From positions 1 through 64,000 of the IMG/VR virus record IMGVR_UViG_3300049571_000582: a DNA stretch of 64,000 nucleotides; one strand, 5' to 3'. A program made the translations under genes and the position numbers. This stretch comes from a virus. The notes below the pieces were generated by a model. The model saw only the letters and a list, made by a program, of their open reading frames with translations, was not told where the DNA came from and did not search any database. This document shows positions 1,384 to 55,086 of the stretch, one piece after another (position 1 is the first letter of the stretch; every line of letters starts with the position of its first letter).

Positions 1384-1413
1384 TGAATAATCCCAGCCCC
1401 CGCCCATAGCATT
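1384..1413 (+). promoter_or_regulatory. Putative phage late promoter, copy 1 (TGAA-N19-TAGCAT)
   Basis: GAA 1385-1387 and TAGCAT 1407-1412; intergenic, followed by a GGGGG SD and GTG at 1447. Confidence 0.65.
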
Positions 1414-1446
1414 GACGTAACACCACGTTGGGAATCGGGGGACACA

Positions 1447-1800
1447 GTGGATAAAGCTGAAGCCGGTCAGAAACTGACAAAGCTGGAGATTGAGAGCGAC
1501 GGCACCCGCGAGGGAACGACTCTCAAGGTCAACGGCAAGGCCGTCAAGGATCTGGCCTCCCTCTCGTTCTACTTCTGGAACGACGACATGCCAGGCAACG
1601 TCAGCCTGGGCTACAGCGTCAAGGACAATCCCGCCGAAGGCAGCGGCGAAATCGGCTCCACCACCTACTACAGCCTCTGCCCGCCCGCCTGCGGATGCGA
1701 CGCCACCCTCGCCCAGGCGTCCAAGGTTCCCTTCGAACATCTCCCGCGCGTCACCGGCGGCCAGCGTTCGCTCTTCGCGAAGATTGGTGCCCGCCAGTAA
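1447..1800 (+). CDS. Hypothetical protein (117 aa)
   Basis: GTG start with a GGGGGAC SD; codon usage typical of the window. Confidence 0.7.
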   Translation: MDKAEAGQKLTKLEIESDGTREGTTLKVNGKAVKDLASLSFYFWNDDMPGNVSLGYSVKDNPAEGSGEIGSTTYYSLCPPACGCDATLAQASKVPFEHLPRVTGGQRSLFAKIGARQ

Positions 1801-1895
1801 CCCACCCAAGCCAGTGCCCTGGATCACCCTCTCCCGGCCACGCGAGCCGGTGATGCCCCAGGGCCAAGACGACCACCGCGGCTGCGGACGAAGAT

Positions 1896-2912
1896 ATGAG
1901 CGATGACCTGATCACTATCGGCGGCAAGGACTTTGTGCGGGCGGAGGCCCGGGCGAAGGTCAAGGTCGTCGCACGCGAGTCGGTGCCGCAGGAGGTCACC
2001 AACCGCACCCGCGCCATCGCCAGCGATCTGCACTGGACCGGCAAGGAGAACCCGGATCTGGTCTATGTGCAGGTGATCATGGACACCGAAGGCCCCAATG
2101 CGAACTGGGACTATCAGCCCCGGGCCGTCCTGATGGCCAAGCATTCCACCGCCGTCTTCAAGCCCTGGGACATGGACCACGTTGTCGAGGAGAAGGGCTC
2201 CCTGACGACCATGTCCAAGGACAACCCGCCGGTGCGCAACACGATCTTCGGTGTCATGACGGCCACGGCCCTCTGCTGGGCATCGACTGGCGAGCTGCTC
2301 ACCGACGATGAGATCAAGACCGTTTCCCAGGAAGACAAGTGGGACCGCGAAGATGGCGAGAAGGTCGCCGTCATGGCGTGGGCCGCCCTCTACCGCTTCC
2401 TGTTTCCCAAGACCGTCGACGACATCGTCGAGCAGGCGAATGCCGGCGACATGTTCGTGTCGATGGAGCGGTGGATCGCCGAGTACGACTTCCTGGTGTG
2501 GGACACCGCCAGCAAGGACTACAAGGCGCAGAGCCTCGACACCGCCAAGGCCAACGGGATCTTCAACCGCTGGAAGACCCGCCAGACCGCCAACGGAAAA
2601 CCCGTGTACCGCCGGTCGCTCTCCTGCTTCTACGGCGGCATCGCAAGCACCACCAACCCCGCCAACAAGCTGGCGCGTTTCGTCGAACCCTCGTTCGTGA
2701 AATCCGCTGCCAGTGACAAAAATGATGCGGTCCTCGAAAAACTTTTAGAGCGACATGGCGAAGTTCATGCGGCCTTCGCCTTAGCATCTTGCGAAGATCA
2801 ACCGCGACTCATCGCCGAGCACGAACGAATCACCAGGGCGATCGCGGCCTACGTGGGGGACCAGGTAAGTGAGCCAGTCGATTCACGAATTGCTGGATCA
2901 AACGCTGCCTGA
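1896..2912 (+). CDS. Putative prohead maturation protease
   Basis: Motifs NANWD..KPWDMDH, VSME (candidate catalytic Ser) and a late NPAN resemble phage head proteases; sits directly before the scaffold, decoration and MCP genes. Confidence 0.65.
   Translation: MSDDLITIGGKDFVRAEARAKVKVVARESVPQEVTNRTRAIASDLHWTGKENPDLVYVQVIMDTEGPNANWDYQPRAVLMAKHSTAVFKPWDMDHVVEEKGSLTTMSKDNPPVRNTIFGVMTATALCWASTGELLTDDEIKTVSQEDKWDREDGEKVAVMAWAALYRFLFPKTVDDIVEQANAGDMFVSMERWIAEYDFLVWDTASKDYKAQSLDTAKANGIFNRWKTRQTANGKPVYRRSLSCFYGGIASTTNPANKLARFVEPSFVKSAASDKNDAVLEKLLERHGEVHAAFALASCEDQPRLIAEHERITRAIAAYVGDQVSEPVDSRIAGSNAA
2759..2789 (+). promoter_or_regulatory. Putative phage late promoter, copy 2 (CGAA-N19-TAGCATCT), inside the protease gene and upstream of the scaffold
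   Basis: GAA 2760-2762 and TAGCAT 2782-2787; preceded by the A/T tract GAAAAACTTTT in a locally AT-rich patch. Confidence 0.65.
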
Positions 2913-2973: not shown

Positions 2974-3702
2974 ATGGCCGAAGCCGTCAACACCATCACG
3001 ATCGAGCAGGTGAAAGCGACCGTCTCCGAACTTCTGGCGCAGAAGGATGCGGAGAAGGCCGTGGCGACGAAGATCGCCAGCCTGGAAACCACGATCAACC
3101 AGGGCGCGGCCGACCTCGCGGCAGCCAAGGCCACCGCGACCGATCTCCAGGCGAAGCTCGCCCAGAAGGATCAGGACATCGACGCCGTCCGCGCGGAACT
3201 CGCCGCGGCCTCCAAGAAGATCGCCGAAGTCGAGACGGCCAAGGCCGATCTCCAGAAGCAGGTCAATCACCTGAACTCCGAGAAGGTCCAGGCCGCTCGC
3301 GTCGCCAAGCTGACCGAGAAGGGCATCGCCTCCGACGATCGCGTGGCGCGCATGACCGCCCGCAACGAAGACGGCACCTTCAAGGTCGCCGATGACATGT
3401 TTGAGCAGATGGTCGCGGATCTCGTCGAAGTGGCCGAAGCGGCCAAGAAGGCGATGACCGACAAGCAGAAGAAGGCGGCCGAAGACGCCAAGGACGGCGG
3501 CAAGGATGACGCCGACGAAGGGCCCGACGGCAAGAAGAAGAGCAAGGCGTCCAAGGATGGCCAGTCCACCGAAACGCCGGCGGCTCCGAACCTCGAAGGC
3601 GATGCAGGCACCCGCGCGACCGCGGCCCTGATCAACGGCCAGGGCGCTCCGGCGGCCTTCAGCCGCGAGTCCTTCGCCAAGTCGATCAAGCACCGCGTCT
3701 AA
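2974..3702 (+). CDS. Putative capsid scaffolding protein
   Basis: Long Ala/Lys/Glu coiled coil with a flexible C-terminus; ATG 2974 follows a GGGGGGAAA SD; located between the protease and MCP genes. Confidence 0.7.
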   Translation: MAEAVNTITIEQVKATVSELLAQKDAEKAVATKIASLETTINQGAADLAAAKATATDLQAKLAQKDQDIDAVRAELAAASKKIAEVETAKADLQKQVNHLNSEKVQAARVAKLTEKGIASDDRVARMTARNEDGTFKVADDMFEQMVADLVEVAEAAKKAMTDKQKKAAEDAKDGGKDDADEGPDGKKKSKASKDGQSTETPAAPNLEGDAGTRATAALINGQGAPAAFSRESFAKSIKHRV

Positions 3703-3779: not shown

Positions 3780-4280
3780 ATGAGCGACAGCAGCTTCAGC
3801 CCGACCCTTAACCTTCCGAAGCGTTATGTGAAGGGCCTCCACAAGTCCTACGGCGGCCTGATGGCTCCGTGGTACATCCCGAACACCGTCTGTGTCGAAG
3901 GCCAGCCGATGAAATTCGGCGTGGCGCAGGACACGATGGACGTGTGCGGCGACACCGACGGCGCGAAGTGCGTGGGTCTCGCGGCCCAGATCGCCTACGA
4001 CGAGGCGGCTTTCGCCGAGCTCAAGGGCTACCAGTTCCTCAACAACACCAAGCAGCGGCTCGATGGCTCGCCGATCGGTCTTCTGACCGGCCAGGGCTAC
4101 GCTTTCACCAACTGCTACGTGGGCACCGTTGCCTGGGGCAACAAGGCCTACATCGATCCGACCACCAAGAAGCTGACGGCGGCGGTCTCCACGGGCAACG
4201 GTCTCCCGATCGTGTTCGAAGGTGCCGGCACCGACGGTGCGAAACTCGTGCGAATCCGGTTCAACTTCGTCATCGCCTAA
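3780..4280 (+). CDS. Putative capsid decoration/cement protein
   Basis: 166 aa, beta-rich; strong SD GAGGGGGA; immediately upstream of the MCP. Confidence 0.6.
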   Translation: MSDSSFSPTLNLPKRYVKGLHKSYGGLMAPWYIPNTVCVEGQPMKFGVAQDTMDVCGDTDGAKCVGLAAQIAYDEAAFAELKGYQFLNNTKQRLDGSPIGLLTGQGYAFTNCYVGTVAWGNKAYIDPTTKKLTAAVSTGNGLPIVFEGAGTDGAKLVRIRFNFVIA

Positions 4281-4370: not shown

Positions 4371-5312
4371 ATGCCCGACAAAGTTGTACTTTCTCCGGAA
4401 GAGCTCGCCAAGGCGATCGAGGCCTTTAAGGCCACTGCGACCAACCAGCGGGCCCGTGAGGCCTTCGCGGAAAGCCGGGCGGACGTGATCCTCCCGCTTC
4501 TGCAGGAACAGTCCACGATCCGCAACATCTTCGACCCCGAGTTCATCGGGTACGATGAAGCGATCTACAACATCCCGCACGACGACATCGAAATGACCTG
4601 GCTCATGCCCCAGATCGGCGGGACGCCCGTCGTCCAGCTGGAAGGCACCGAGATGCGGGTCAGCACCTTCCTGGTGCACGGTGGCGTCGAGTGGCAACAG
4701 CGGATTGCCGCGGCCGGCCGGATCAACCAGGCCGAGCAGGCCACGACCCAGCTGCTCAACCGCTTCGTCCGCCAGGAAGAGCGTGCGGGCTGGTCGCTGA
4801 TCAAGACCCACGCCGCGGTCCTGCCGACCGAGCAGAAGGTCACCGCGTTCAAGGATGACGGCACCGCGGGTGGCAGTGGCGCTGGCCGCCTGAACATCTA
4901 CACGATCAGCGAGACGCTGACCGTGGCCGACAGCATCGGCATCGGTGGCCGTCGCGTGACGGACATCTATGTGTCGCCCCGCCGCTTCGGCGACCTCCGC
5001 AATGCGGTGACGATGGAAGCCCTGCCCATGACGATGCGGGAACGCCTCTGGGGCAACGGCACCAACCCCGAGTCGCCCGCCGGCGAGCTCCGGATCCACA
5101 AGGTCTACAACCCCGAGCTCGTCACCGACGCCAAGGCTTACGCCTTCACCCAGAAGGACGGCTATCGCTACGGCGTGATGCCCATCCGCGAGAAGCTGGT
5201 CACCCGCGACCGCCTGGCCTCGCAGGACGAGTGGAAGAACGGCGTCGAAGGGAAGGAAGAGATCGGCTTTGGCGTCCTGGACGACAAGGGCCTGATCGAA
5301 ATCACCTTCTAA
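4371..5312 (+). CDS. Major capsid protein (probable HK97 fold)
   Basis: 313 aa; follows protease, scaffold and decoration genes; C-terminal 'KEEIGFGVLDDKGL' resembles HK97-type capsid ends; strong SD; followed by a terminator. Confidence 0.8.
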   Translation: MPDKVVLSPEELAKAIEAFKATATNQRAREAFAESRADVILPLLQEQSTIRNIFDPEFIGYDEAIYNIPHDDIEMTWLMPQIGGTPVVQLEGTEMRVSTFLVHGGVEWQQRIAAAGRINQAEQATTQLLNRFVRQEERAGWSLIKTHAAVLPTEQKVTAFKDDGTAGGSGAGRLNIYTISETLTVADSIGIGGRRVTDIYVSPRRFGDLRNAVTMEALPMTMRERLWGNGTNPESPAGELRIHKVYNPELVTDAKAYAFTQKDGYRYGVMPIREKLVTRDRLASQDEWKNGVEGKEEIGFGVLDDKGLIEITF

Positions 5313-5341: not shown

Positions 5342-5378
5342 AGAACGCCGGGACTAAACACCCCGGCGTTCTTCTTTT
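5342..5378 (+). terminator. Rho-independent terminator after the MCP
   Basis: 11-bp stem AGAACGCCGGG/CCCGGCGTTCT followed by TCTTTT. Confidence 0.8.
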
Positions 5379-5379
5379 G

Positions 5380-5410
5380 GCAAAGGACACAAGGCCAGGG
5401 CGTACCATCC
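5380..5410 (+). promoter_or_regulatory. Putative phage late promoter, copy 3 (GCAA-N19-TACCATCC)
   Basis: CAA 5381-5383 (one mismatch to GAA) and TACCAT 5403-5408; lies directly after the terminator; GTG start 6 nt downstream. Confidence 0.55.
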
Positions 5411-5414
5411 TAAC

Positions 5415-6056
5415 GTGCTGCACTTTTCGCGAAACGCCACCATCCTGCTTCCGGCAGACGTCGCCCTGTTCAACGGCCTGACCCCGCGACCCGGGGAGGC
5501 TGCCAACATCGGCTGCTCGGTCGTGTCCCTGGACACCGGCAAACTGCTGGACTTCTCCGACGGCACCTTCAAGACCTCGCCCACTCAGCCTTCCTCCACC
5601 GTCGCCGCGATGCCCGGCTTCACCTACGACTACATCGTCCGGCTCTCCACCGTCGGGTATCCCCGGGGCCATTACCGGGCGCTGTTCCGGCAGGTCGTCA
5701 CCGGCGAGGAGTTCAGCATCGACTTTTCCGTCGGGCTTCATGTGGGCCGCCGGCTCGGATACGCGGCCGCCTACGATGGATCCACCCTCACCCTCTCGCT
5801 GTGGGTCGAGGAGAATGGCGAGGCCCAGACGGACTATTCCAGTTTGAAGAATGTGACGATTCTTGATTCGTCCGGGGCTGCTGTCGACAACGGCACGTTC
5901 CCCGACAACTCCGCACCCACCAATGGGGTGTTTGGATTCCAAAAGACCATCGCCCTTGCTGCATCAAGTGTCTACATCGTGACGTGCAAGGCTGTCGTCC
6001 CAGGCCCGAGCGGCAATTATGAATTCTCGCTTCGGTTTGGGATGGCTCGGCCCTAA
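5415..6056 (+). CDS. Hypothetical beta-rich virion protein (possibly leaderless)
   Basis: 213-aa ORF with an Ig-like strand pattern; no SD; the start coincides with the predicted transcription start. Confidence 0.65.
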   Translation: MLHFSRNATILLPADVALFNGLTPRPGEAANIGCSVVSLDTGKLLDFSDGTFKTSPTQPSSTVAAMPGFTYDYIVRLSTVGYPRGHYRALFRQVVTGEEFSIDFSVGLHVGRRLGYAAAYDGSTLTLSLWVEENGEAQTDYSSLKNVTILDSSGAAVDNGTFPDNSAPTNGVFGFQKTIALAASSVYIVTCKAVVPGPSGNYEFSLRFGMARP

Positions 6057-6073
6057 GCATTTGGAGTCGTACC

Positions 6074-6478
6074 TTGGGGGCCCAGCGTAGAAATCTTCCG
6101 CCCAGCCTGCTGGTCAACGAGACCTCGCCGACTCTCTCGGCGGACCTCGATGCCAACGGGCACAAGGTTGTGAATGTCCCGACGCCCACCAATGCGGGGG
6201 ACCTGGTTCGCAAGTCCGACCTCGACGAGGTTTCAGCCCACGTCGATGCGGTTGTGACGGAGCTCCAGGACGAGATTGGTCAGGGTGCCACGCTTGAGTT
6301 TGACCAAACTGAGGCGTCGACGCTCTGGACCATCGCCCACAACCTCGGACGTCGGCCGTCTGTCACCACCGTCGATACGGTCGGCGATGAGATTGAAGGC
6401 CAGGTCCATTACGTCGATGCGAACACGGTGCAGGTTGCGTTCTCGCCCGCCGTTGCTGGTAAAGCGTTTCTCAATTAA
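6074..6478 (+). CDS. Short fibre-associated protein
   Basis: Trimeric neck-like motif KVVNVPTPTNAGDLVRK; C-terminal 'WTIAHNLG..P.V' domain shared with the next gene. Confidence 0.7.
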   Translation: MGAQRRNLPPSLLVNETSPTLSADLDANGHKVVNVPTPTNAGDLVRKSDLDEVSAHVDAVVTELQDEIGQGATLEFDQTEASTLWTIAHNLGRRPSVTTVDTVGDEIEGQVHYVDANTVQVAFSPAVAGKAFLN

Positions 6479-6487
6479 GGGGAAATC

Positions 6488-7816
6488 ATGGCAGTCGGGA
6501 AGTTCTACAAAGACATCAACCTCAATGGCAACCAGCTCCTGAATGCGGGGCTGGAAAAGCTCTCCGCGCCACCGACGCCCGGGACGCAGGGGCGGATCTT
6601 CTACAACACCACCTCCGCCCGCCTGTGCATCGACAACGGCTCCTCCATCGACACCTATGGCTTTGGCACTGTCACGAGCGTCGGCATCACCGGCCCCTCG
6701 ATCTTCAACTATGGATCGGCCGTCACGGGCTCGGGCAACCTGAGTCTCTCGCTGGCCAGCCAGAGTCCCTACACGGTCTTTGCCGCTCCTTCGGGTGGCG
6801 GCACGCCCTCCTTCACGACCATCGACCACAACTGGATCAGCGACTTCAACACTGCTGTCCGCGCCAACACGCTCAACCAAATGGCCTCGCCGGTAGGCCC
6901 GGTGGCCTTCAACAACCAGAAAATCACGGGCCTCGCGGACCCCACTGCAGCCCAGGACGCAGCCACGAAGAAGTATGTCGATTCCGCAATCCAGGGCCTG
7001 CAGGTCAAGCCGACCGCGGATCTCGCGACGACCGCCGCACTGCCTTCGTGCACGTATGCGAACGGGGTTTCAGGCGTCGGGGCCACCCTCACCGGAACGT
7101 CCAATGGTGCACTGTCGGCAATCGACGGCATCACGCCGACGGTTGGAATGGTCATCCTGGTGAAGGACCAGGCGACAGCGGCACAGAATGGGCTGTACAC
7201 CGTGACGGCCGTCGGCAGCGCGGGAGCCCAGTTCGTACTGACCCGCCACGTCGACATGGACGAAGCGGCCGAATTCTCCGGTGCGTTCATTCCGGTTTCC
7301 AGCCAGGGCACCGCCAATAAGAACTCGCTGTGGATCGCAAACCCCAGCGGCACCGTGACGGTGGGCACCACGAGCATCCCCCTGCAGCAGCTGGACAGCG
7401 CGGCAGATTTCACCGCCGGATCCGGCATCAGCATCTCCGGCAACACCATCTCCATTTCCGCGTCTTACACGGGGCAGACGTCCATCACTACGGTGGGGAC
7501 GATCGCGTCGGGCACCTGGCAGGGGGCCGCTGTTGCCGTGGGCTACGGCGGCACCGGTGCGAGCACGGCGGCGGGCGCTCGGGCGAACCTCGGGGCCTTG
7601 ACGCGAGTGACCGGGACGCTCAACGGCAATGGGTCCACGACCGTGTTCACCGCCACGCACAATCTCAATTCGACGGCTGTGCATGTGACGGTCTTTGATT
7701 CCACGGGGGCTCAGGTCGAGCCCGACATCCAGAACACCAGCGTGAACGCCACCACCATCACGTTCTCGCCCGCGCCGGCCAACGCATCGAGCTGGACGTG
7801 GGCCGCCATCGGATAA
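6488..7816 (+). CDS. Phage fibre protein
   Basis: KITGLADPTAAQDAATKKYVD neck motif; VILVKDQATAAQNGLY; YGGTGASTAAGARANLG; C-terminal 'THNLN' domain. These are common fibre motifs. Confidence 0.85.
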   Translation: MAVGKFYKDINLNGNQLLNAGLEKLSAPPTPGTQGRIFYNTTSARLCIDNGSSIDTYGFGTVTSVGITGPSIFNYGSAVTGSGNLSLSLASQSPYTVFAAPSGGGTPSFTTIDHNWISDFNTAVRANTLNQMASPVGPVAFNNQKITGLADPTAAQDAATKKYVDSAIQGLQVKPTADLATTAALPSCTYANGVSGVGATLTGTSNGALSAIDGITPTVGMVILVKDQATAAQNGLYTVTAVGSAGAQFVLTRHVDMDEAAEFSGAFIPVSSQGTANKNSLWIANPSGTVTVGTTSIPLQQLDSAADFTAGSGISISGNTISISASYTGQTSITTVGTIASGTWQGAAVAVGYGGTGASTAAGARANLGALTRVTGTLNGNGSTTVFTATHNLNSTAVHVTVFDSTGAQVEPDIQNTSVNATTITFSPAPANASSWTWAAIG

Positions 7817-7863
7817 GAAGACCCGGGCAGCAGCACAAGGATCGGGATCAGGGGGACAAAGGT

Positions 7864-10800
7864 TTGAAGAAGTTTCTCGTTGACGTCAGCATGTCCAACA
7901 ACCTCACGGTGACGGGGGCGTCTGCCGCGGGCACCCTCGTGTCCAGCGGGTTTGTGTATGGCAAGCAGCTGCAACTTGCTGGCCTGCTCAACAACATCGG
8001 ATCCGGCACGTTTTACACGGCCTACCTTGGATCGATCATCAACCAGCCCATCGGCGGAACGGCCTCGAATGTCGACCTGATGATCGACCGCACCGAAACC
8101 AACCCCGGAAGTGGGCCGCAGTACCTGATTCAGGCTCGCACCAACGGGACCGACAAGCTCACGCTCACTAACAATGGCATCCTGACGGTCCCGGGTGCCG
8201 TGCTGTCCAACAGCTTTCAGTTCATCGGGATCCCTGGTTATTTGGCCGGCGACGGGTCCGGCAATCTGGTGGTCTCCGCCGACACTGGCCAACTCCAGCT
8301 CAGTGGCGACGATGGAGTGCATGTTCTTAGTGACCTGAACGTCAACGGCGCTCTCGTGTTCGATGGGGCCAATTACGCCACCGGAATCAATCAGCTTCGC
8401 GACGTCGAAGACGTTCTGATCTACGACTGGGCCAGCGGCGACCGGCTGTTTTACGGCAGCGGGCAGAACCTCACCAACCTGAACGCCGACAATATCGCCT
8501 CCGGCCAAGTCGCACCGGCCCGTCTGGCGACCGGCACCCCTTCCGCTTCGACGTTCGTTCGAGGCGACGGCACGTGGTCGCCGGTGGTCGCCGGCTCCAA
8601 CACGCAGATCCAGTACAACAACAGCGGGGCTCCCGGGGCCAGCTCCAACTTCACCTTCAATCCTTCGAACGGCCTTTTCACCGTCGCGGGCAACGCGGTC
8701 GTCAACAGCGCCCGCAACTCTTACGGGCTCATCCTCAGCACCCCAGTGAACAACCTGTCATATTTTAACGTCTACGTTGACCCCAATGGGTGGGGCGGGG
8801 TCACCCTGGGGAGTGACTCCGGCACCGGCCAAGTCACATTTAGTGGGTATGGCGGCAACTGCATCAACAATGGGGATTACTGGAACGGCGGTGGGCTGTC
8901 CCTGGGATCCAACCTTCCGTGGGGCAACGGTGGGTGGGGTCTCCGAGTGGAGAATGCGTCCTCTGGCGCTGCATACTTTCGTGGGGCGGTGAAGTTTGAT
9001 CCTGCGGCGGCCCCGAGCTCACCCTCGGAGGGCATGTTCTATTACGACTCGACCGCCCATGCCCCCAAGTTCCACAACGGCAGTGGCTGGATCACCGTTG
9101 GTGCCGGCGGCGGTGGGTCAGTCTCCGCGCCCCTTGCCCTTGTCGGAACCACCGACGCCGTTCAGCTGTCGGTGAAAGCCAACGCCACGCAGAACACCAA
9201 CCCGGCGGTATTCGCCGTTCGAAACAGCAGCAACTCGATCGTGATGAGCGTCGATTCGTCTGGCAACGTCGTCTCCCCCAGCTTCTCGACTGGCTCGCCT
9301 GCGTCCATCGCCGATGACGGTAGCGGCGGCTGGTTAATTAGTGCCGACGCCGGCGGCGTGACCATCACGGGAGACAATGGCCTGGTCGTCGAAACATACG
9401 CGAATTTTGACCAGGGTGCTGCCTTCTACAATGGGGCCGATTTCTACGGTGGCTGCTATTTCGACGACGCCGGCATCTCGATCTTGCCTTGGTCCGGCCA
9501 AGGGGGCTGGATTGACATGCCCACGTGGGGCGCGTGTGGGATCGGCACTGGGGGGCCCGGCCAGAATGCGTGGATCGCGTATGCAGCATCGAGCAACCAG
9601 TGGTTCCCCGGGGCCAACGCAGGGGACGTTTGCTACCGGAATACGGCTGGTAGGATCCTGATCGGCACCAACTCTGGACGAACCCCCGACATCATCGTCG
9701 ACTCCGCCGGCACCGTTTCCATGGGGGGCAACGCCTCCGTCGCCGGGACCCTTACGGCGACGGTGGTTGAGAAGGTCAAGACCTTTACGCCCGGGTCCAC
9801 CGGCTGGTATCGCATTGCCACTCGCTCAAGCAATATGTCGGGCAAGCTGCTGATCACCGGGAGTGGGGGCGGTCGCCAGGCCGATGAGGAAATTCACTTC
9901 TTCGTGAATGGCTGGGAGTCTGTCTCTGCAATCAACCAGGTGAACTCGCTGCCTTATGGCGGTGGCGCGGTCCCCATCGTCGATCAGGTGCGTGCGTCGG
10001 GGAACGCAGGTGATGGCAGCACCTACCTTGATATTCATGTCAACGTCGCAAGCATTCCCCTGACCCTCTACCTGTACGGCAACAACGCGCCGGCGTTTCT
10101 CTCGACCCCGACGCTGAGCCCCACCATCGGACCCACGGGCCAAAGCGTCCTGACCGTACGGGCGGGCCTTCACACCACCGCCGCGATGTCGTGCAATGAC
10201 CTGACGGTCAGCTACGGCATCAACGTTACGGGGATGTCGGGTCCCGGAACCGTCGCGGCGTACCAGTTTTACGGCGCGGCATGGACCGATCTTCGAATTC
10301 ACAACCAGAATGGGGGCGTTCAGATCTGCGGCCCCAGCGACGGCGGAACCGTCGGCATTGGTTCTGTGCCGGGCACGGACAAGCTCACCGTCGGCGGCAC
10401 CGTCAAAGCTACGTCGCTCAACGGGCCGCTCTACAAGACCGACTGCACGAATGGAAATCAGTACATCACCCTGCACCAGACGGGATACACCAGCGGTGTC
10501 GACTTCGGCGTCTACAACGATGGGGGCTGGTTTCGCGTAGGTGCTTACAACAACTACTCCTACATGTCCTGCTCCACGGACAACGGATCTCCCCGGCTTA
10601 CCATGAATCGCGGAGACACGGGGGGTGAGCGATACATCCGCCTTTCCACTGGCGATAATTGGGGTGGATCTCACTTCTTTGGAAATTTCGCCAATGACGG
10701 CACAGGCATCAATTATTACACCACCGACACCTACAAACTGCTCAATTTCAATGGGACAATCCTGACTGTCACGGGGCGGGTGCGGCACAACGTTCTCGCC

Positions 10801-11109
10801 GCCACTGTCGCCTCCGGCGGAACCCTGAGTCCCGACTGGTCGACGGGCACGAGCGTGGATGTGACAGCCAACGGAAACATCAATTTGGGAAACCCCACCA
10901 ACGCCGCCAACGGGGACAAGTTCGAATACCGGATCTACAACAACACGGGATCCGCCATCACCGTCACGCTCAGCGGTAGCAACATTCGCAATCCCAACTA
11001 CACCATCGCCTCCATCGCCGCGGGGAAGCAGACCAAGATCGGCATGGAGTACACCACGCTCGGGGGCGTGACGAAGTTCGATGTCATTGGCTTGGCCGAG
11101 AACTACTAA
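7864..11109 (+). CDS. Long fibre/receptor-binding protein (~1081 aa)
   Basis: TTG start after GGGGGAC; fibre motifs NLTNLNADNIASG, TFVRGDGTW, GSNTQIQYNNSG, EGMFYYDST, GWYRIA, VGIGSVPGTDKLTVGG; Gly/Ser/Thr/Asn-rich. Confidence 0.85.
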   Translation: MKKFLVDVSMSNNLTVTGASAAGTLVSSGFVYGKQLQLAGLLNNIGSGTFYTAYLGSIINQPIGGTASNVDLMIDRTETNPGSGPQYLIQARTNGTDKLTLTNNGILTVPGAVLSNSFQFIGIPGYLAGDGSGNLVVSADTGQLQLSGDDGVHVLSDLNVNGALVFDGANYATGINQLRDVEDVLIYDWASGDRLFYGSGQNLTNLNADNIASGQVAPARLATGTPSASTFVRGDGTWSPVVAGSNTQIQYNNSGAPGASSNFTFNPSNGLFTVAGNAVVNSARNSYGLILSTPVNNLSYFNVYVDPNGWGGVTLGSDSGTGQVTFSGYGGNCINNGDYWNGGGLSLGSNLPWGNGGWGLRVENASSGAAYFRGAVKFDPAAAPSSPSEGMFYYDSTAHAPKFHNGSGWITVGAGGGGSVSAPLALVGTTDAVQLSVKANATQNTNPAVFAVRNSSNSIVMSVDSSGNVVSPSFSTGSPASIADDGSGGWLISADAGGVTITGDNGLVVETYANFDQGAAFYNGADFYGGCYFDDAGISILPWSGQGGWIDMPTWGACGIGTGGPGQNAWIAYAASSNQWFPGANAGDVCYRNTAGRILIGTNSGRTPDIIVDSAGTVSMGGNASVAGTLTATVVEKVKTFTPGSTGWYRIATRSSNMSGKLLITGSGGGRQADEEIHFFVNGWESVSAINQVNSLPYGGGAVPIVDQVRASGNAGDGSTYLDIHVNVASIPLTLYLYGNNAPAFLSTPTLSPTIGPTGQSVLTVRAGLHTTAAMSCNDLTVSYGINVTGMSGPGTVAAYQFYGAAWTDLRIHNQNGGVQICGPSDGGTVGIGSVPGTDKLTVGGTVKATSLNGPLYKTDCTNGNQYITLHQTGYTSGVDFGVYNDGGWFRVGAYNNYSYMSCSTDNGSPRLTMNRGDTGGERYIRLSTGDNWGGSHFFGNFANDGTGINYYTTDTYKLLNFNGTILTVTGRVRHNVLAATVASGGTLSPDWSTGTSVDVTANGNINLGNPTNAANGDKFEYRIYNNTGSAITVTLSGSNIRNPNYTIASIAAGKQTKIGMEYTTLGGVTKFDVIGLAENY

Positions 11110-11925: not shown

Positions 11926-11932
11926 GGAAACA

Positions 11933-12268: not shown

Positions 12269-12291
12269 AACACCCTTTTGTGGAGATCGTT

Positions 12292-12645: not shown

Positions 12646-12665
12646 ATTCTCCAAAATCTAAACGA

Positions 12666-12695
12666 CGAAGCGGGCAGTCGCGGGACGTACCATCT
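12666..12695 (+). promoter_or_regulatory. Putative phage late promoter, copy 4 (CGAA-N18-TACCATCT)
   Basis: GAA 12667-12669 and TACCAT 12688-12693; intergenic; upstream tract TCCAAAATCTAAA. Confidence 0.7.
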
Positions 12696-16053: not shown

Positions 16054-16061
16054 GCAGACGG

Positions 16062-16091
16062 CGAAGCCGCCGCATTGCAGCCAATAGTATC
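16062..16091 (+). promoter_or_regulatory. Putative phage late promoter, copy 5 (CGAA-N19-TAGTATC)
   Basis: GAA 16063-16065 and TAGTAT 16085-16090; intergenic, before the tail tube gene. Confidence 0.7.
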
Positions 16092-18549: not shown

Positions 18550-19557
18550 ATGGACGAAGCATACGGCGACCTGCTCGATGAACGCGGACAGATCCGGGAC
18601 TCGGTCCTCGACGATTTGCTCATCGAGATCATCTCGGGCAAGAGCATCTTTGAATCCGGCAACGAGCTCTATGCGAGCCGGCCGCCGGTGATGGCGGAAC
18701 TGGATGCCGCGCGGCTGGTGTACCGGAGGAAGGTGCACGAGGCGACAAAGTCCGGCCTCCCCAGCCGCGCGGAGATGGAGAAGATGGCGATCGCTCGGGG
18801 CATCGTTGACGCCCAGGAGCGGGCGGAGATTGCCTCGCTTGAATCGTACATGCAGCGGCTCAACGCCAGCCGAGAGGGATCCACGGACGAAAAGTATCGC
18901 ATCGAGCTGGCCGCCCAGATGGAGGAGACCTACCAGCGTCTTGCGGAACTCCGGGCGTCCGACGAATCGCTGTTTGCCCACACCGCTGAGTCCAAGGCCG
19001 AGTTCTGGCGGATTAGCTTTCTCACCTCCCGGTGTACCCTTTCCGGCGAGCTCCTGGACATCCCCCTGTGGGCGACGTGGGAGGACTTTCGCGCCTGCGA
19101 GAATCCTGTTCTTGTGCGGGATGCACGCAGGGCATTTGTGAGAGTTTTTAACGGTTTGCCCATTACCATCATCAGAGCTGTTGCCCGCACAACCGAGTGG
19201 CGAGCCCGCTGGAAGGCTTCCCGGGAATCGGGCACGCAGCTCTTCGACGGATCAAGTGCCGACTGGGACGCCAATAAGCGAAACCTGGTCTGGTGGTCCG
19301 ACTTCTACGACGCCATCTATCGTCACCCCGATTGCCCTCCGGATGAGACGATTCGGGATGACAAGAGCCTGCAGGATTGGGTCAACAAGCAGATCGCCAA
19401 GAGCAAGAAGGCATCTCGCGAGTCCAAGCGGCCGGATGCACCGGCCACGCCTCCTCGCACTTTCCGCCTGGGGGATGGACGACGCGTCCCGGCGGTGAAG
19501 GTTGGCGAAGAGAGCATCAAGGTCAACACGCCCATCAAGATCAGGGCTTCGCGATAA
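18550..19557 (+). CDS. Putative tail assembly chaperone 2
   Basis: Directly before the TMP; paralogous core plus a C-terminal extension (WSDFYDAIYRHPDCPPD). Confidence 0.6.
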   Translation: MDEAYGDLLDERGQIRDSVLDDLLIEIISGKSIFESGNELYASRPPVMAELDAARLVYRRKVHEATKSGLPSRAEMEKMAIARGIVDAQERAEIASLESYMQRLNASREGSTDEKYRIELAAQMEETYQRLAELRASDESLFAHTAESKAEFWRISFLTSRCTLSGELLDIPLWATWEDFRACENPVLVRDARRAFVRVFNGLPITIIRAVARTTEWRARWKASRESGTQLFDGSSADWDANKRNLVWWSDFYDAIYRHPDCPPDETIRDDKSLQDWVNKQIAKSKKASRESKRPDAPATPPRTFRLGDGRRVPAVKVGEESIKVNTPIKIRASR

Positions 19558-34940: not shown

Positions 34941-34946
34941 TTGCGG

Positions 34947-34977
34947 CGAATACCACCCTCGGCCGCCATTACTATCT
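34947..34977 (+). promoter_or_regulatory. Putative phage late promoter, copy 6 (CGAA-N19-TACTATCT)
   Basis: GAA 34948-34950 and TACTAT 34970-34975; SD and ATG 34995 follow immediately. Confidence 0.7.
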
Positions 34978-34994: not shown

Positions 34995-35900
34995 ATGGGC
35001 AAGCCATTCAGGATTGCGACATTCGACGGCGGCGGAATCTGCGGACTCTACTCCGTCGGCCTGATGCGCCGCATTATTCAGCAGTTCCCCGGCATCACCG
35101 ACAGCATCGATCTTTTCGCCGGCACCTCCACCGGCGGGCTCATCGCCCTTTCCTTGGCTGCGAACCTGTCGATCGACACCGTGCGCGACCTGTATCTCAA
35201 CAAGGCAAAAAGCATTTTCGCCAAGCCGCTGGGCTGGCGGATCAAGAGCGTGTTCGGGGCCGCGGAGTCCAAGTATTCCAACAAGGGCCTGATCAAGGCC
35301 GCGTATGAGGTCTTTGGCGGGACCTTTCTGGGCGAGCTGCCCAAGAAAGTCGTCGTGCCGGCATTTGACCTCTGCTCCGAAGCGTCGCCCGAAGATCCCT
35401 CGTGGCGGACCCGCTTCTTCCACAACCTCACCCCCGACGACAAGCTGGAGCTGGTTTCGGACATCGCCGTCAGGACCGCCTCCGCCCCCACCTTCTTCCC
35501 CTCGTATCAGGGCTATGTCGACGGCGGGGTTTTCGCCAACTTCCCCGCACTCGTGGCCGTCTCCCAGGCGATGGAAAAGAACCCCAGCCTCCAGCTCGAA
35601 GACATCCGCCTGCTGGCGGTGGGGACCGGCGGGCAGATCAAGTACATCTCCGGACAGGACCTCTCGTGGGGTGCCGTCCAGTGGATCCGTCCCATTCTCG
35701 ACATCTTCATGGGGGCGCAGTCCCTGCTGGTCGACAGCCTCTGCAAGAAACTCCTCAGCGAGCGGTACTGTCGTCTGAGTCCCGCCATCCCCGGCATCGC
35801 AATGGACGATGTCTCCCGCATGGGTGAACTGGTGTCACTGGCTGAAAACACCGACCTGGGACCAACTTTTGATTGGGTTGAGAAAACATTTCTCGCCTGA
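34995..35900 (+). CDS. Patatin-like phospholipase
   Basis: DGGG oxyanion loop; GTSTG nucleophile; ASAPTFF; DGG catalytic Asp; GAGGGGGG SD. Confidence 0.93.
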   Translation: MGKPFRIATFDGGGICGLYSVGLMRRIIQQFPGITDSIDLFAGTSTGGLIALSLAANLSIDTVRDLYLNKAKSIFAKPLGWRIKSVFGAAESKYSNKGLIKAAYEVFGGTFLGELPKKVVVPAFDLCSEASPEDPSWRTRFFHNLTPDDKLELVSDIAVRTASAPTFFPSYQGYVDGGVFANFPALVAVSQAMEKNPSLQLEDIRLLAVGTGGQIKYISGQDLSWGAVQWIRPILDIFMGAQSLLVDSLCKKLLSERYCRLSPAIPGIAMDDVSRMGELVSLAENTDLGPTFDWVEKTFLA

Positions 35901-35979
35901 TGCCCGATCTATGAACGCCAGCGGAGTGGAAGTGGCCCGCGGGGTCGCCCGCAGGCTACTTACAACGGAGGCACATAGC

Positions 35980-36613: not shown

Positions 36614-36910
36614 TTGGCGACGGAAAGTCCGCATGAAGCCAATCTGCGAAAACTCAGATCTCAGGCCCACGACCTTTTCGATCCCCTCTGGAACCAATCT
36701 CACCATCGCGAAATGAGACACATCTGCTACCGCTGGCTGACATCCCAGCTTGGCGTGCCTACCGCCAGAGCCCACTTTTCTGCCATGGGCGTCGGTGAAC
36801 TTCACAGGGCCATCAAGGTCCTGCGAAAGGCCAATGTGGGCATCGTCATCTCCTGGTGGTTGTCAAAACCTCCAAAACCTAAAATGAAGAAGACCCCTCG
36901 CGCGTCGTAG
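36614..36910 (+). CDS. DUF3268-like protein lacking the N-terminal Zn finger
   Basis: LRKLRSQAHDLFDPLW...YRWLTSQLGVP...HF resembles the C-terminal half of phage DUF3268 proteins; TTG 36614 after a poly-G SD. Confidence 0.6.
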   Translation: MATESPHEANLRKLRSQAHDLFDPLWNQSHHREMRHICYRWLTSQLGVPTARAHFSAMGVGELHRAIKVLRKANVGIVISWWLSKPPKPKMKKTPRAS

Positions 36911-36915
36911 CATCT
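36885..36915 (+). promoter_or_regulatory. Putative phage late promoter, copy 7 (TGAA-N19-TAGCATCT)
   Basis: GAA 36886-36888 and TAGCAT 36908-36913; upstream repeated A-tracts TCAAAACCTCCAAAACCTAAAA. Confidence 0.7.
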
Positions 36916-45349: not shown

Positions 45350-45364
45350 AGGAGGGGGTGTCGC

Positions 45365-46471
45365 ATCGCTGTTCCGTACATCAAGATCTACCAGCTCCCT
45401 CAAGGCTACGTCGAAAACGCCGATTCCGACATTCAGTTTCTCAAAGACGATGAACTGGTCTCGATCGTCCCGAAGCTGGAGCTTCTCAAGGACGTCCGTG
45501 ACAAGTCCCCCCTCGTCGGGGCCATCCTCTCCGACAAGCTGCCCCTGATCTGCTTCGATCATGCCGCCGGCGCGGTGACCGAGAACCTCGTCGCCCACCC
45601 CACCAAGGCCGGCGTGTTTGTCCCCCAGACCACCTCCTGGTCGACGGTCATGTACGAGACCGTTGGCGTGTTTGCCGCCGTTGTCCGCAACGCCCTCAAC
45701 AACGTGATGGATGCGACGGAATTCACCTTCACCGCCGACGGCGTGAGATTCACAGCGACGGCGGGCACCACCATCCAGTTCTACAAGAAGGCGGCCATCG
45801 GATCCTCCGACACGTTCGCATTCCTTGGCGACACGTTCTACCGCGGGGCGAACCCGGTGTGGAACCGCCTGCTGCTCTCGATCGACAATGGCCCATGGGG
45901 CATCTATACCCGGCCCGCCGATGGCGTGGGGTACCTTCAAATCTCCAGCGTCACCGTGGGGGTCGTCGCCACCTACGCCGTCACCTCGACTCGGGCCAGG
46001 CAGTTCATCAGCCCCGACCAGAACTGGGTCACCGAGCACTGGCGCATGTGGCCGGACGTGTTCGTGGGCACCTACGACTATCCGGGCGACACCTACCAGG
46101 ACAGCAATGCAACGCCCGTCGAACCCGGACCCATGCCGCTGTTCCGGGATCCTGGCACCTACTCGCTCAACGTGCGTGACGGCGTCGTGGAATTTCCCGA
46201 ATGGATCGATTCGACGGCCAACCCCGTCCGCGCCAACTATGCCCACCTCGCCGGCGTCGACAATGTCACGGGGATGAAACTCGACGTGGTCGCGGGGTCA
46301 AGCAACAAGAAGTTCAAGGCGGCCACCGAGACGCTCTTTACAGCCGCCCACGGGAAAAGAATTGTGAATCGCGATGACCCGTACACGCCGATCAATGTGT
46401 ACGTCAACGGCGTCTTGTCGCCGCAGGAAATCCCGATCGCACCTTATGACACTCTCGAGGTGATCCGATGA
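45365..46471 (+). CDS. Putative virion protein (368 aa) with an apparent ATC start
   Basis: The frame is open and coding-like for 70 codons upstream of the GTG at 45575; AGGAGG at 45350-45355 sits 9 nt before ATC-GCT-GTT-CCG. Confidence 0.7.
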   Translation: MAVPYIKIYQLPQGYVENADSDIQFLKDDELVSIVPKLELLKDVRDKSPLVGAILSDKLPLICFDHAAGAVTENLVAHPTKAGVFVPQTTSWSTVMYETVGVFAAVVRNALNNVMDATEFTFTADGVRFTATAGTTIQFYKKAAIGSSDTFAFLGDTFYRGANPVWNRLLLSIDNGPWGIYTRPADGVGYLQISSVTVGVVATYAVTSTRARQFISPDQNWVTEHWRMWPDVFVGTYDYPGDTYQDSNATPVEPGPMPLFRDPGTYSLNVRDGVVEFPEWIDSTANPVRANYAHLAGVDNVTGMKLDVVAGSSNKKFKAATETLFTAAHGKRIVNRDDPYTPINVYVNGVLSPQEIPIAPYDTLEVIR

Positions 46472-52700: not shown

Positions 52701-54642
52701 GATCACGGCTCCCGCCAACGGCGTGGAGATCAGCAACGTGGGAAACGATGGCGTCCGCGACGTGGTCCGGTGGTGGCGATTCCGTGTGCAGACCAGGGCC
52801 GAGGGCCCCGACGGTGTGTACGAGGCCGACGGCAACTATGCGCCGGTGGATCTGTGCGACCTCGAGCGCGTCCTCTACGAATTTGAACTCGACGCTGCAC
52901 CCACCTTTGACAGCCAGTCCGGAGGCAATCCTCTTCGCCGCAAATTCAGCAACTACGACGGCTCACTGCTGGCGGTCGCGACGGCGACATCGCAGGCGGA
53001 CTCCCCCGACGCCCCCGCGGCCTATCAGGGGGCGGTGCTCAAACTGCCTCCCTCCGAGCTGCCCGGGAAGGTCGCCGGCGATGAGCCCGCGTCTGGCCAG
53101 GAGAGTTTCGAGGCGACCTACCAGTGGCGGGTCGCCGCATACAACCGCTTCACCGGCGATGTCACCGCCCGCCCGCGGCCGCGGATCACCGCCGCCTCGG
53201 TGGATCACGACACCGGCACCGGCGTTTTCGAGTACCTCGCCCAGGCCCACCCGATGATCACCACGATGAGTCTTGGGGTCGATCCGGAGATGGGCGGGAG
53301 CCACGTCAACGGCTACGCGATCAGCGGCACCTTCCTGGCGATGCCGGCGTGGGTCGATGAGACCGAGCTGGCATGGATCTCCGATCGCCGCGCACCGCTT
53401 GAAGATGGAAATCCCAGCCGGCAGATCAACAGCCTCAACTGGGTGTGGCCCAACACCGACCGCAAGCGCGTCTCGTTTCTCTACGACGAAGCGAAGGGCC
53501 AGTACGTCGGGTTCATGGCCAAGAGCGATCCCAACGATCTCAGTGGGCAGCGTCATCGAATCGTCGGCATCCGCGCGATGGAGTTGGGAAAGCCCTGCGA
53601 ATACGACGTCTACTTCGCCGACAACCCGGCGCTTGCGATTTATGGACCGTGCGTGGTCCGCGTCAACGGGACGTACCGGCTCTATGTGACGGTGCAGGAC
53701 ACGGCTGCATCCCAGCCGCGGATCATGACCGCCAGCAGCAGCGACGGTGACTCCTGGTCCGCGCTTGTGGAAACCGGCGTCGACCTGGGTGCCAACCCCA
53801 GCGTGGTCTTCGACGGCACACACTTTGTGATGTTCTTTGAGAAGCCCTCGACGGCTGTTCAGTCACCCGATCCCTCGCCTGAATCCCCCTCGATCGAGTC
53901 GAGCGGATATGCGCTGCTGGAAACCGGCGGGTCGGCGAGGGTCCGCGCGCCCCAGCAGGCGACGATCCACGGTGCCGCCTCGGGGCCGGCGTCGGTGCAG
54001 ATCCACTACGCCACCTCGGTTGATGGTGTGAACTTCGGCGTCAGCACACAGGCCACCGCCGACCCCTACGGTGCACAGGCACCCGGGGCGGTCCGCCTCA
54101 ACGGTGCATGGGTTGTCTACTACCAGAGCGGCAACTTCATCGTCTCGGTCGCGGGGCTGACGCCGGGCACCCTCTCGGGGCGAAGGACCGAGCGGTCGCC
54201 GGTGAATGGATTTTCCCCGATGCACCCGATGCCTTTTGTCGATCTTTACCAGGGCAACGAAGAGCTCTTCCTTGCCTACACCGCGCGGAAGGGGTCCGAC
54301 TATCGCACCCGGATCGTTCGTCTGGAGGACCGGGTGTGGGTTCAGGGGAACACCGACAAGATCTTTGGAGCCCCGGGCCACCTGCTGAACGTTCCAAGTT
54401 CCGCCGCGGGCATTGAGCGACAGGTGCGTGTCGACTTGCTGAGTCACGGCATCAGCGAAGGGGCGAGCATCAAGGTCCGCCTCAACTTCACGGACTGGTC
54501 CCCGACATCCAAGACCTACCTGCGGCAATCCGACTGGGTGTCGGCAAGCAACGCGGAGGAGACCGGCAGCGTCGTGAGCCCGGAGAGCTTCACCTACACG
54601 TCACTGCTTGATGCGTTTCCCTATTTGAGGATTGCCTCATGA
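49798..54642 (+). CDS. Large virion protein with FN3/Ig-like repeats and a glycosidase-like beta-propeller (1614 aa)
   Basis: FN3-like YFFRVRMSDG..GDWS, YRLRIRQ and YQWRVAAYN; Asp-box-like STDDGFTW, SSDGDSW and SVDGVNF; blade motifs GPCVV..NGTYRLY and NPSVVFDG..FVMFF. Confidence 0.75.
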   Translation: MATVRPDILVKVGSGPLDAVGEWAAVDTPTPYVEWSAPLLNQFRFSVKIACVESGATAVATSGPRTGTDQHFRFPVGVGMGPGFAGLCTVEVALSQNSTGDFEFISPPFYFVYDPYTENLFRARKLTLRFNPGDDPDALPQNGGRQYHAQVASDPLFMNVLWENSAIAAGPAAEVSYDVPQEDLTLETNRIYFFRVRMSDGLDFGDWSIVNAFRNFQDLPPVVRFVSVGPSTGDAGDVLITFDIDDAARVPASVEFYYVDGTGPGDRQPLSLVESAGHLMPGRHSVTWRTMNQLSRSKHDQIMLFARARDSRNYGPEAAFGPAVIDNSAIPVPVGGIGTDRWRFSVAGWAANPGKSLDLDPVDMPVQMAIGDDALNVDQQLPVAAGQVWKPSTYDQVLPTQMPTLVDSILHIAGQGLSPLDGVYVWVPQQTPDGPGAMTKKLDHFLLQTPTGPVRLPATVTTVHGTTAINETSVTRQFDGGCVATTGTYPGGITADMNPIDFPARGILWRSEALSLSGPVAGETAQPFNYFFSGISPDSHPGHALQPRPGQLGGFRVSGSLGRSWSTVDLGFAFLQAYWDAYNTVHWRATASETSSVRIQFCRVLDDGSEPVFIDVRGDNAAFSEETGRWITDPLVFNIYWDTSDRTAIPSGGTYRLRIRQCDPKSRTIGDWVYSSDFQIINGITNPVSILSEIYEPWSKTVTIELRCDSSTGEYYTLTNFWYSTDDGFTWKRISIGDISGARAHLSSLPGENRHVIVWDTSGYNVSASNNVRVKIACAPAEALSAIQVPFFKWLTPANPYVDAAESQAVDLLGRWETRVYDPATGTIVPAVPPVRVPGTLTMLQQQAEGVRQDPSTGAPQGAYSFLTPDANGLITGKSWPGGGGSRWAVADQDGYKAWLAAPFTPIETHAQALSRISQQMDYITAVQLPALQKTIAAGEKRVRKRLMDQGYFAEEFFPVINGKITETITAPANGVEISNVGNDGVRDVVRWWRFRVQTRAEGPDGVYEADGNYAPVDLCDLERVLYEFELDAAPTFDSQSGGNPLRRKFSNYDGSLLAVATATSQADSPDAPAAYQGAVLKLPPSELPGKVAGDEPASGQESFEATYQWRVAAYNRFTGDVTARPRPRITAASVDHDTGTGVFEYLAQAHPMITTMSLGVDPEMGGSHVNGYAISGTFLAMPAWVDETELAWISDRRAPLEDGNPSRQINSLNWVWPNTDRKRVSFLYDEAKGQYVGFMAKSDPNDLSGQRHRIVGIRAMELGKPCEYDVYFADNPALAIYGPCVVRVNGTYRLYVTVQDTAASQPRIMTASSSDGDSWSALVETGVDLGANPSVVFDGTHFVMFFEKPSTAVQSPDPSPESPSIESSGYALLETGGSARVRAPQQATIHGAASGPASVQIHYATSVDGVNFGVSTQATADPYGAQAPGAVRLNGAWVVYYQSGNFIVSVAGLTPGTLSGRRTERSPVNGFSPMHPMPFVDLYQGNEELFLAYTARKGSDYRTRIVRLEDRVWVQGNTDKIFGAPGHLLNVPSSAAGIERQVRVDLLSHGISEGASIKVRLNFTDWSPTSKTYLRQSDWVSASNAEETGSVVSPESFTYTSLLDAFPYLRIAS

Positions 54643-55034
54643 GCACGATCCCAACAGAGAACCCCGGCGTCAGCCCCCCGTTTCCAGTCAGTGGCGAGGA
54701 GTTCATTCTTCGGCACATCCAGGCGATCACCCGCGTGCAGATCGAGGGCGTCGAGCCGCCGACCCTTGGGCTTCAAGCGGGCTACTCGCCGGCGGTGGTG
54801 ATGACCAACCGGTGGTTTCCATGGATCGATGAGAAGCTCGTCGAGCCCAAATATGACGGGGTGTCGCAGTACCTGGGGATCCCCTCGAACCAGCCCACTC
54901 CCATTCGCGATTACCACATGCTGTCCTTGTTCCGGGCCGTTGATGCGATCCTCGCGCCCGCGTACACGGGCCTCATTATGTCGCAGGTCGACTCAATCAT
55001 GCCGGAGAGTCCGCCTTTATCGCCAAGTCATTGA
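54639..55034 (+). CDS. Hypothetical protein (131 aa)
   Basis: ATGA overlap; GAGG SD. Confidence 0.7.
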   Translation: MSTIPTENPGVSPPFPVSGEEFILRHIQAITRVQIEGVEPPTLGLQAGYSPAVVMTNRWFPWIDEKLVEPKYDGVSQYLGIPSNQPTPIRDYHMLSLFRAVDAILAPAYTGLIMSQVDSIMPESPPLSPSH

Positions 55035-55056
55035 AGATAAAGCCTTTTGAGACTAC

Positions 55057-55086
55057 CGAAGTTGTGAATGAGTTGCCATAGCATCT
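55057..55086 (+). promoter_or_regulatory. Putative phage late promoter, copy 9 (CGAA-N18-TAGCATCT)
   Basis: GAA 55058-55060 and TAGCAT 55079-55084; intergenic, followed by a poly-G SD and ATG 55114. Confidence 0.7.

Follow-up and report, generated by a model that had tools for sequence, protein, structure and literature searches.

In phage T4, middle promoters join a MotA box near -30 to a sigma-70 -10 element, TAnnnT, with AsiA, and in P2 and Mu late transcription depends on the activators Ogr and C, respectively. In the Bacillus phage SPO1, a sigma cascade passes from gp28 to gp33/34. The closest documented case to the locus described here is Salmonella phage 7-11, in which eight late promoters of the form GTAAtg-N16-aCTA are read by the phage sigma SaPh711_gp47 (PMC8948821). 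The promoters of phiEco32, which are read by gp36, are single elements of the form tAATGTAtA and differ from those of 7-11 at the same genome positions (PMC8948821). Here we analyze the first 64 kb (the window) of the 110,669-bp IMG/VR record IMGVR_UViG_3300049571_000582 (G000), which is classed as a provirus and estimated to be 48% complete, and in particular ten copies of a two-box motif, c(G/T)AAg-N17/18-TAsyATC, often then followed by t, in its structural genes. These sites are very probably promoters, and we lean modestly towards the view that they serve a large temperate phage as late promoters and depend on a phage-made factor.

The locus resembles 7-11 and phiEco32 in having a two-part motif of non-canonical sequence that stands ahead of late genes in ~8-10 copies, in belonging to a phage family whose members code for small, divergent sigmas containing regions 2 and 4, and in having relatives that keep promoter positions and not promoter sequences. 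Unlike in those phages, the -10 element here is primary-sigma-like, the candidate sigma is visible only in a relative, and the system is known from sequence alone; the phage is also temperate, and its hosts are probably uncultured PVC-type bacteria. The sites, together with the hairpin that precedes one of them, are as follows.

1383..1413, + strand: predicted late promoter 1, gtGAAt-N19-TAGCATT, with a predicted start at ~1419; the next gene is 1447-1800
2758..2788, + strand: predicted late promoter 2, gcGAAg-N19-TAGCATC, in the 3' end of gene 1935-2912
5345..5378, + strand: predicted intrinsic terminator after the capsid gene, an 8-bp G+C stem then UUCUUCUUUU (-21.1 kcal/mol, z -2.4)
5379..5409, + strand: predicted late promoter 3, ggCAAa-N18-TACCATC, with the terminator directly upstream
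12665..12694, + strand: predicted late promoter 4, acGAAg-N18-TACCATC; the next gene is 12736-13401
16061..16091, + strand: predicted late promoter 5, gcGAAg-N19-TAGTATC; the next gene is the tail-tube candidate 16161-17111
19140..19170, + strand: weak candidate 19164, gaGAGt-N19-TACCATC, inside gene 18511/18733-19557 and ~400 nt before the tape-measure gene
34946..34976, + strand: predicted late promoter 7, gcGAAt-N19-TACTATC; the next gene encodes a patatin-like phospholipase (34995-35900)
36884..36914, + strand: predicted late promoter 8, atGAAg-N19-TAGCATC, with a TAG that ends the DUF3268 gene 36518-36910 as its stop codon
45119..45149, + strand: predicted late promoter 9, gcGAAa-N19-TACCATC, ~200 nt short of the giant gene's stop codon and preceding the genes from 45350
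55056..55085, + strand: predicted late promoter 10, ccGAAg-N18-TAGCATC; the next gene is 55114-55776

A first-pass annotation of the window had given these ten positions, all of which were correct on recheck, and had claimed that the motif is restricted to the + strand; indeed all ten sites lie on + inside the 58-kb structural block, and the bipartite pattern occurs 0 times on -. Between positions 1 and 58,238, TASYATC is found nine times on + and 0 times on -, against a third-order Markov expectation of 3.6 ± 1.9. The pattern GAA-N18/19-TASYAT[CT] occurs there eight times (nine with CAA), versus 0.16 (0.37) expected and a maximum of two (three with CAA) in 300 simulations, so that the comparison with a random background for which the annotation had called came out in its favour, at 8-9 bipartite matches versus 0.2-0.4 expected. 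Over the whole 110,669-bp record there are 7-8 matches on + and 0 on -, with none beyond 58 kb. A scan with a position weight matrix (PWM), which was built from the sites themselves and is circular for these training sites, scored 9/10 sites at 18 or above, and the best other match on either strand reached 15.5; from this gap we conclude that there are no further copies of the motif. A gapped-word count made without reference to the annotated pattern returned TA..ATC as the most enriched of all XX..XXX words across the 2,060 non-coding nt of the late block, with 6 of its 14 copies non-coding (p = 2.8e-6, ~0.003 after 1,024 tests). TASYATC copies in a low-GC island of the record (98368 on +, 100429 on -) were set aside as mid-gene or antisense.

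The ten sites have the layout of sigma-70-family promoters, with two boxes ~17 bp apart on the coding strand and upstream of genes. They combine an upstream A/T tract, a c(G/T)AAg box without TTG, a spacer of 17-18 bp, and a TAsyAT hexamer in the -10 position with C after it. RNA would start at the purine 7 nt after the hexamer, which for the nine sites other than 19164 predicts starts at 1419, 2794, 5415, 12700, 16097, 34982, 36920, 45155, and 55091 (±1). With nnGAAn and TAsyAT as the two hexamers, 17-18 bp separate them in 10/10 sites; TA..AT is invariant in all ten, with T-12, A-11, A-8, and T-7 all kept. C directly follows the hexamer at 9/10 sites here and 10/12 in related phages, and a purine stands at hexamer end +7 at 9/10 and 11/12, respectively (20/22; P = 6e-5). 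The A/T fraction at -50 to -20 is 0.51-0.54 versus 0.37 overall, and a G+C-rich stretch lies just before the hexamer. TTG in register at -35 was found at 0/10 sites here and 0/12 in relatives, where the box is c(G/T)AAg, and the spacers and upstream tracts contain no conserved dyad or longer box beyond c(G/T)AAg and the A/T tract. All sites are co-oriented with the genes, 6-7 of the ten being intergenic and three inside genes; they lie 13-64 nt from start codons, except for three at 180-400 nt, and predicted leaders are 0-64 nt at seven sites.

Compared with described promoter classes, the sites share T-12, A-11, and T-7 of the -10 with primary-sigma promoters (TTGACA-N17-TATAAT) and lack the TTG at -35. 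ECF-type boxes (AAC at -35, CGT at -10) are not present, as the -35 is GAAG, GAAT, or GAAA and CG precedes TA in just 4/10 sites, and the FliA-type CCGAT core is absent from the late sites of G000. What G000 does share with a late class read by a phage sigma is a non-canonical motif confined to the late genes of a sigma-encoding phage.

We regard conservation among related phages as the strongest evidence that these sites are promoters. In at least six related phages, both boxes recur at the corresponding gene starts with spacers that are not conserved. Gene order is kept in relatives whose capsid proteins are 51-60% identical, and all 10 PWM matches of 16 or more in relatives fall on the late strand, with 0 on the opposite one. 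Ahead of the counterpart of gene 1447-1800, TAGCAT is found at L014:4227, L040:6773, and L041:6809 (= G007r:57111), and TACCAT or TACTAT lies before the counterpart of gene 12736-13401, or after the capsid gene, at L022:10351, L038:1927, L040:14944, L042:1877, and G007r:64132. TAGTAT precedes the tube gene in 4/4 orthologues (L014:13916, L040:19236, L044:14439, and G007r:73670). At these three orthologous positions the boxes are kept down to their degenerate letters, which are position-specific (TAGCAT, TACCAT, TAGTAT), and the spacers are unrelated. The relative G007 (193,655 bp, 97% complete), which is syntenic with G000 throughout, carries the late motif at six orthologous places: before the counterparts of the genes at 1447, 12736, and 55114, before the tube gene, before the gene that follows 34533-34940, and before a MerR-like gene. 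These include a strong site after the homologue of 34533-34940 (G007r:98723), TACCATT upstream of the MerR homologue (G007r:111273), and TAGAATT upstream of the homologue of the 55114 gene (G007r:129423).

Other relatives have other promoter sequences at the same positions, namely CCGATAA in G002, in which a full FliA-type sigma is present, and in L044, and TTGACA-N17-TATAGT in L018, canonical boxes being found in both L018 and L019, which are low-GC relatives. It is thus highly improbable that the motif is instead a protein-binding site, an RNA processing site, or filler inherited at gene boundaries: the three sites inside genes would suit such a role, but the motif has two boxes whose spacing is fixed at 17-18 bp while the sequence between them varies freely, stands 13-64 nt before start codons with a purine at +7, follows a terminator after the capsid gene, and gives way in relatives to canonical or FliA-type promoters at corresponding positions. 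Being co-oriented, mostly intergenic, and kept at orthologous gene starts, the sites uphold the original proposal of a promoter class confined to the late, structural block.

As to which factor reads this class, a search for sigma70-family genes, which the first-pass annotation had suggested, returned two in the record, both outside the window. The same part of the record holds a second motif (motif 2), AAWC-N13-TTGCCCGATC, with ten exact copies at 61-103 kb of G000 that are co-oriented with replication, nucleotide-metabolism, and modification genes; the 52 kb outside the late block contain 0 late sites and 10 TTGCCCGATC copies.

G000 86455-87030, + strand: gene of a 191-aa sigma, TIGR02937 66.7 bits, with r2 and r4
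G000 69349-70011, - strand: gene of a 220-aa FliA/WhiG-like protein with a weaker sigma match
35880..35909, + strand: degenerate candidate motif-2 site (35902), AAAC-N13-gatGCCCGATC, before gene 35980-36480; the only copy in the late block
61505..61545, - strand: predicted motif-2 site (61517), AAAC-N13-TTGCCCGATC, before - strand genes

The structural model of the 191-aa sigma has two helical domains, and all of its top structural matches are sigma factors (ECF, SigB, WhiG). The protein, which is recorded on a 144.5-kb contig, is nearly an orphan, as three proteins reach E<=1e-10 in a set of 1.84 billion representatives, and its gene is located in the replication operon between the two DnaE halves, with a terminator and a degenerate, weak motif-2 copy upstream. 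Both sigma genes lie in operons headed by motif-2 sites. As single-protein queries both sigmas gave no useful match, and a profile of the 191-aa sigma found no match in IMG/VR. The FliA/sigma-28 promoter consensus is TAAA-N15-GCCGATAA, and the CCGAT core of motif 2 resembles its -10 element. Both motif 2 (AAWC-N13-TTGCCCGATC) and the CCGATAA late promoters of G002 and L044 resemble this class, whereas the late motif shares only the ATC(T) tail with it.

G007 separates these sigmas from the late motif. No homologue of either was found there by profile search, tblastn, or inspection of the syntenic slots, which hold transferase genes and an unrelated open reading frame (ORF), and G007 has one TTGCCCGATC copy versus ten in G000. 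As G007 lacks both sigmas as well as motif 2, the two visible sigmas co-vary with motif 2, and most likely they read it, ahead of the replication and DNA-modification genes. The annotation's reading of GAA as a novel -35 element is thus not supported for either of these sigmas, since G007 keeps the motif without them; a pairing of the 191-aa sigma with the late motif by elimination is overturned for the same reason. The reader of the late motif is probably neither visible sigma, and we consider it improbable that the 191-aa or the 220-aa FliA-like protein serves this class. Both are sigma-70-family proteins, the stronger match and the two-domain fold belonging to the 191-aa protein (66.7 bits to TIGR02937, r2 and r4). 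In favour of this protein are its near-orphan status, the place of its gene in the replication operon, downstream of a terminator and of the weak motif-2 copy, which would be apt for a late regulator, and the fact that G002 has neither a homologue of it nor the late motif. Set against this are the six orthologous late promoters of G007 in a genome with no homologue of either sigma, the co-variation of the sigmas with motif 2 (one copy versus ten) and not with the late motif, and the likeness of the CCGAT core to the FliA -10 GCCGATAA, which fits the FliA/WhiG-like sequences of these proteins.

As the late motif is kept in G007, its reader should be something that both phages share. G007 has one sigma-like gene (G007 contig 150710-151216), which lies directly upstream of the terminase and portal genes, heads their operon, and is itself preceded by a late-type variant, GTGAGT-N18-TATCATC. 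The terminase-portal block of G007 is absent from the 48%-complete G000, and family searches found no terminase or portal genes in the 110,669-bp record, which fits a prophage cut at the integrase with its packaging genes at the unsampled far end. Our preferred candidate for the reader is a small, divergent sigma whose gene would lie immediately before that of the terminase, as in G007, and we give this identification close to an even chance. Pairwise comparison of the G007 sigma with all other family sigmas was not significant, so the sigmas of these phages are not pairable by sequence.

Several observations weigh against this assignment. The G007 sigma-like protein falls below curated cut-offs (36 versus 42.9 bits for TIGR02937; 22 versus 24 for Pfam r2), no homologue of it is detectable in the G000 record or in IMG/VR, and placing a G007-type sigma in the present phage is an extrapolation from synteny. 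The -35 box carries just 3-4 informative bases, and the purine and A/T-tract statistics are post hoc, having been computed once the sites were known. In addition, the late -10, TAnnAT, has the same form as the canonical promoters of the G007 early region (TTGCAT-N16-TACAAT, TTGCCA-N17-TAGAAT, and TTGCAA-N17-TATGAT), whose -35 elements are unlike the late box; it keeps the positions that primary sigmas read, and the host primary sigma could read the sites.

These last points lead to the alternative that the host primary sigma, with a phage activator or a T4-middle-like sigma-appropriation pair acting at the GAA box or A/T tract, makes up for a poor -35. Such an arrangement would resemble T4 middle, P2, and Mu promoters in its primary-sigma-like -10, its lack of TTG at -35, its short box in the -35 region, and its restriction to one temporal gene group, but here the box is GAA plus flanks only, and those promoters have nothing equivalent to the C conserved after the hexamer. 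We judge this alternative possible but rather unlikely. The retention of T-12, A-11, A-8, and T-7 with a 17-18 bp spacer agrees with it, as do the similar -10 elements (TACAAT, TAGAAT, TATGAT) of the G007 early promoters, the plain TTGACA-N17-TATAGT at the same position in low-GC relatives, and the persistence of the late motif in G007 without the two G000 sigmas. It does not account as well for three traits, in that TTG is wholly lacking, GAA is fixed, and the hexamer is followed by C (9/10 sites here, 10/12 in relatives); to our knowledge, the last two play no part in recognition by primary sigmas. Furthermore, the analysis yielded no candidate activator gene, nor any homologue of MotA, AsiA, Ogr, or C, at which no search was aimed; a conserved dyad is lacking from both spacers and upstream tracts, and G007 has a sigma-like gene where a late regulator would sit.

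Dependence on a phage-made factor would itself follow from the biology of a temperate phage, because ten unregulated structural-gene promoters would be incompatible with lysogeny, and the class is absent from the replication half. We thus envisage that such a factor switches the late class on, and that a homologue of the G007 terminase-linked sigma is encoded in the unsampled half of the prophage. The transcription units so controlled would be the head genes, scaffold-capsid, decoration and fibre genes, neck, tube, patatin, the MerR-like gene with the giant protein, the accessory proteins, and the gene at 55114. A more speculative extension, which we hold only tentatively and consider doubtful, is that promoter positions have stayed fixed as promoter sequences were swapped several times in the family, and that a three-tier cascade with three phage sigmas operates here, the two FliA/WhiG-like sigmas having taken over the whole early and middle programme, which would leave the record with hardly any host-type promoter, and the third, terminase-linked sigma reading the late class. 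This would be like SPO1 in having several phage sigmas and promoter classes per genome, with the sigma gene of one class driven by the previous class, and unlike it in that the cascade order is drawn from gene positions alone and the third sigma is hypothetical for G000.

A phage-specific late-promoter class is in itself ordinary, and the kind is already known from 7-11 and phiEco32. What the present data offer is a testable transcription map made up of ten predicted starts, the limits of the operons, and a pair of promoter classes. It covers a clade of phages of 110-195 kb whose probable hosts, uncultured PVC-type bacteria, belong to a group with essentially no transcription data. The family also lends itself to a natural comparison of how promoters and sigmas are replaced while their genome positions stay fixed, which bears on how phage timing is rewired, and the motifs could serve as genetic parts in these hosts.

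Sites 19164, 2782, and 45143 (named by their hexamers) have weaker support than the intergenic sites. The weakest is 19164, with a PWM total of 18.2 of which the -35 part contributes only 3.2, and it is without orthologous support. At the position of promoter 2 (2782), GAA-N19-TATCAAC is found in L014:5724 and L039:566, within coding sequence there; downstream of this promoter in the window are a scaffold-like gene (2974-3702), gene 3780-4280, and the capsid gene (4371-5312). The tube gene is flanked by site 16085 and a strong hairpin, and a terminator follows gene 17674-18471.

For promoter 3 (5403) the annotated position stood, with the qualification that its -35 box is CAA and that its hexamer lies 6 nt before the GTG start at 5415. 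A hairpin with a T-run also occurs at the post-capsid position in L014, L015, L019, L022, L038, L039, and L041. Counting 7 nt from the hexamer end leads to the first G of this codon, whose identity as the start is fixed by homologues beginning MIHFPR in L037, L040, and L053; because the predicted start coincides with this G, promoter 3 is predicted to yield a leaderless, GUG-initiated mRNA. Relatives have a normal ribosome-binding site where the G000 gene would be leaderless. The seven-gene block 5415-12645 between the capsid gene and gene 12736-13401, with decoration- or fibre-like matches for 6488-7816, is absent or much shorter in L014, L015, and L022 and partial in L039 and L040, and it looks like an insertion flanked by two late-promoter copies.

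Site 36908 had been described as preceding the giant protein, and its position is correct, but it does not do so directly, as a 69-aa MerR-like ORF (36958-37167) comes first. This small gene of the MerR helix-turn-helix family, just before a 2,700-aa giant protein, is kept in G007. The idea that its product realigns an over-long spacer was rejected, given spacers of 17-18 bp without a dyad. The DUF3268 zinc-finger-family gene upstream (36518-36910) has no obvious start context. Right after the stop of the giant gene, a coding-like open frame (45350-45574) lacks an ATG, GTG, or TTG start; an ATC 9 nt after AGGAGG may be a non-canonical start.

Gene calls in this record are rough, being drawn from G+C at third codon positions (GC3) and family searches, and give the following layout.

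1-1374: tyrosine integrase
up to 58,238, all on the + strand: structural genes (late block), from GC3 calls and family searches
58.2-72.3 kb: leftward block with RecD2-like helicase, class II ribonucleotide reductase, dCMP deaminase, and the FliA-like sigma
72.3-73.0 kb: control region with iterons
73-95.3 kb: rightward replication block with RecA, DnaB-like helicase, primase, nuclease, and split DnaE with the sigma gene between the halves
distal to the 95.3-kb end of the replication block: low-GC island, then leftward DNA-modification block

The G+C content of the window is ~62%. A comparison of the window with a phage collection gave no match, tRNA and Rfam searches of the window found none, and single-protein scans with the capsid and tube proteins as queries gave no useful match. 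The capsid gene has ~100 relatives, on contigs of 150-190 kb; named ones are few, and two of them are from Phycisphaerales and Planctomycetota bins. The relative L040 is a prophage whose flanking glycosidase has named homologues from Verrucomicrobiae, Kiritimatiellia, Hydrogenedentota, and Planctomycetota. Because of these capsid bins and the L040 flank, the host is probably an uncultured PVC-type (Planctomycetota-like) bacterium. In L022 (CAWHDI010000021.1), a public MAG contig, Chloroflexia housekeeping genes (UvrB, RuvABC, YebC) are joined at ~10,075 to the last 72 capsid codons. A Chloroflexia host was dropped, as a junction in mid-capsid gene with a jump in G+C indicates a chimeric contig; L022 is probably an assembly chimera, and its bin taxonomy is unfit as a host call.

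Host-type promoters of the form TTGnnn-N16-18-TAnnAT number 0 on + and 2 on - in the 110-kb G000 record, and 8-9 each in G007 and G002, so the visible half of this phage appears almost without candidates of this type. The most enriched 6-mer of the late-block non-coding DNA is GGGGGA (12 of 40 copies), a ribosome-binding site, and ribosome-binding sites throughout the window are unusually G-rich (GGGGGGA or GAGGGGG), for example at 2960-2973, 16145-16160, and 34983-34994. Lastly, the divergent control region carries repeats at G000 72640-72830, comprising three to four CCCGCTATCGGGACAAAA and paired TGCGCAGCGCGC, TGTATATGAYAAT, and CAGTAAGTAT, which are candidate origin or operator sites.

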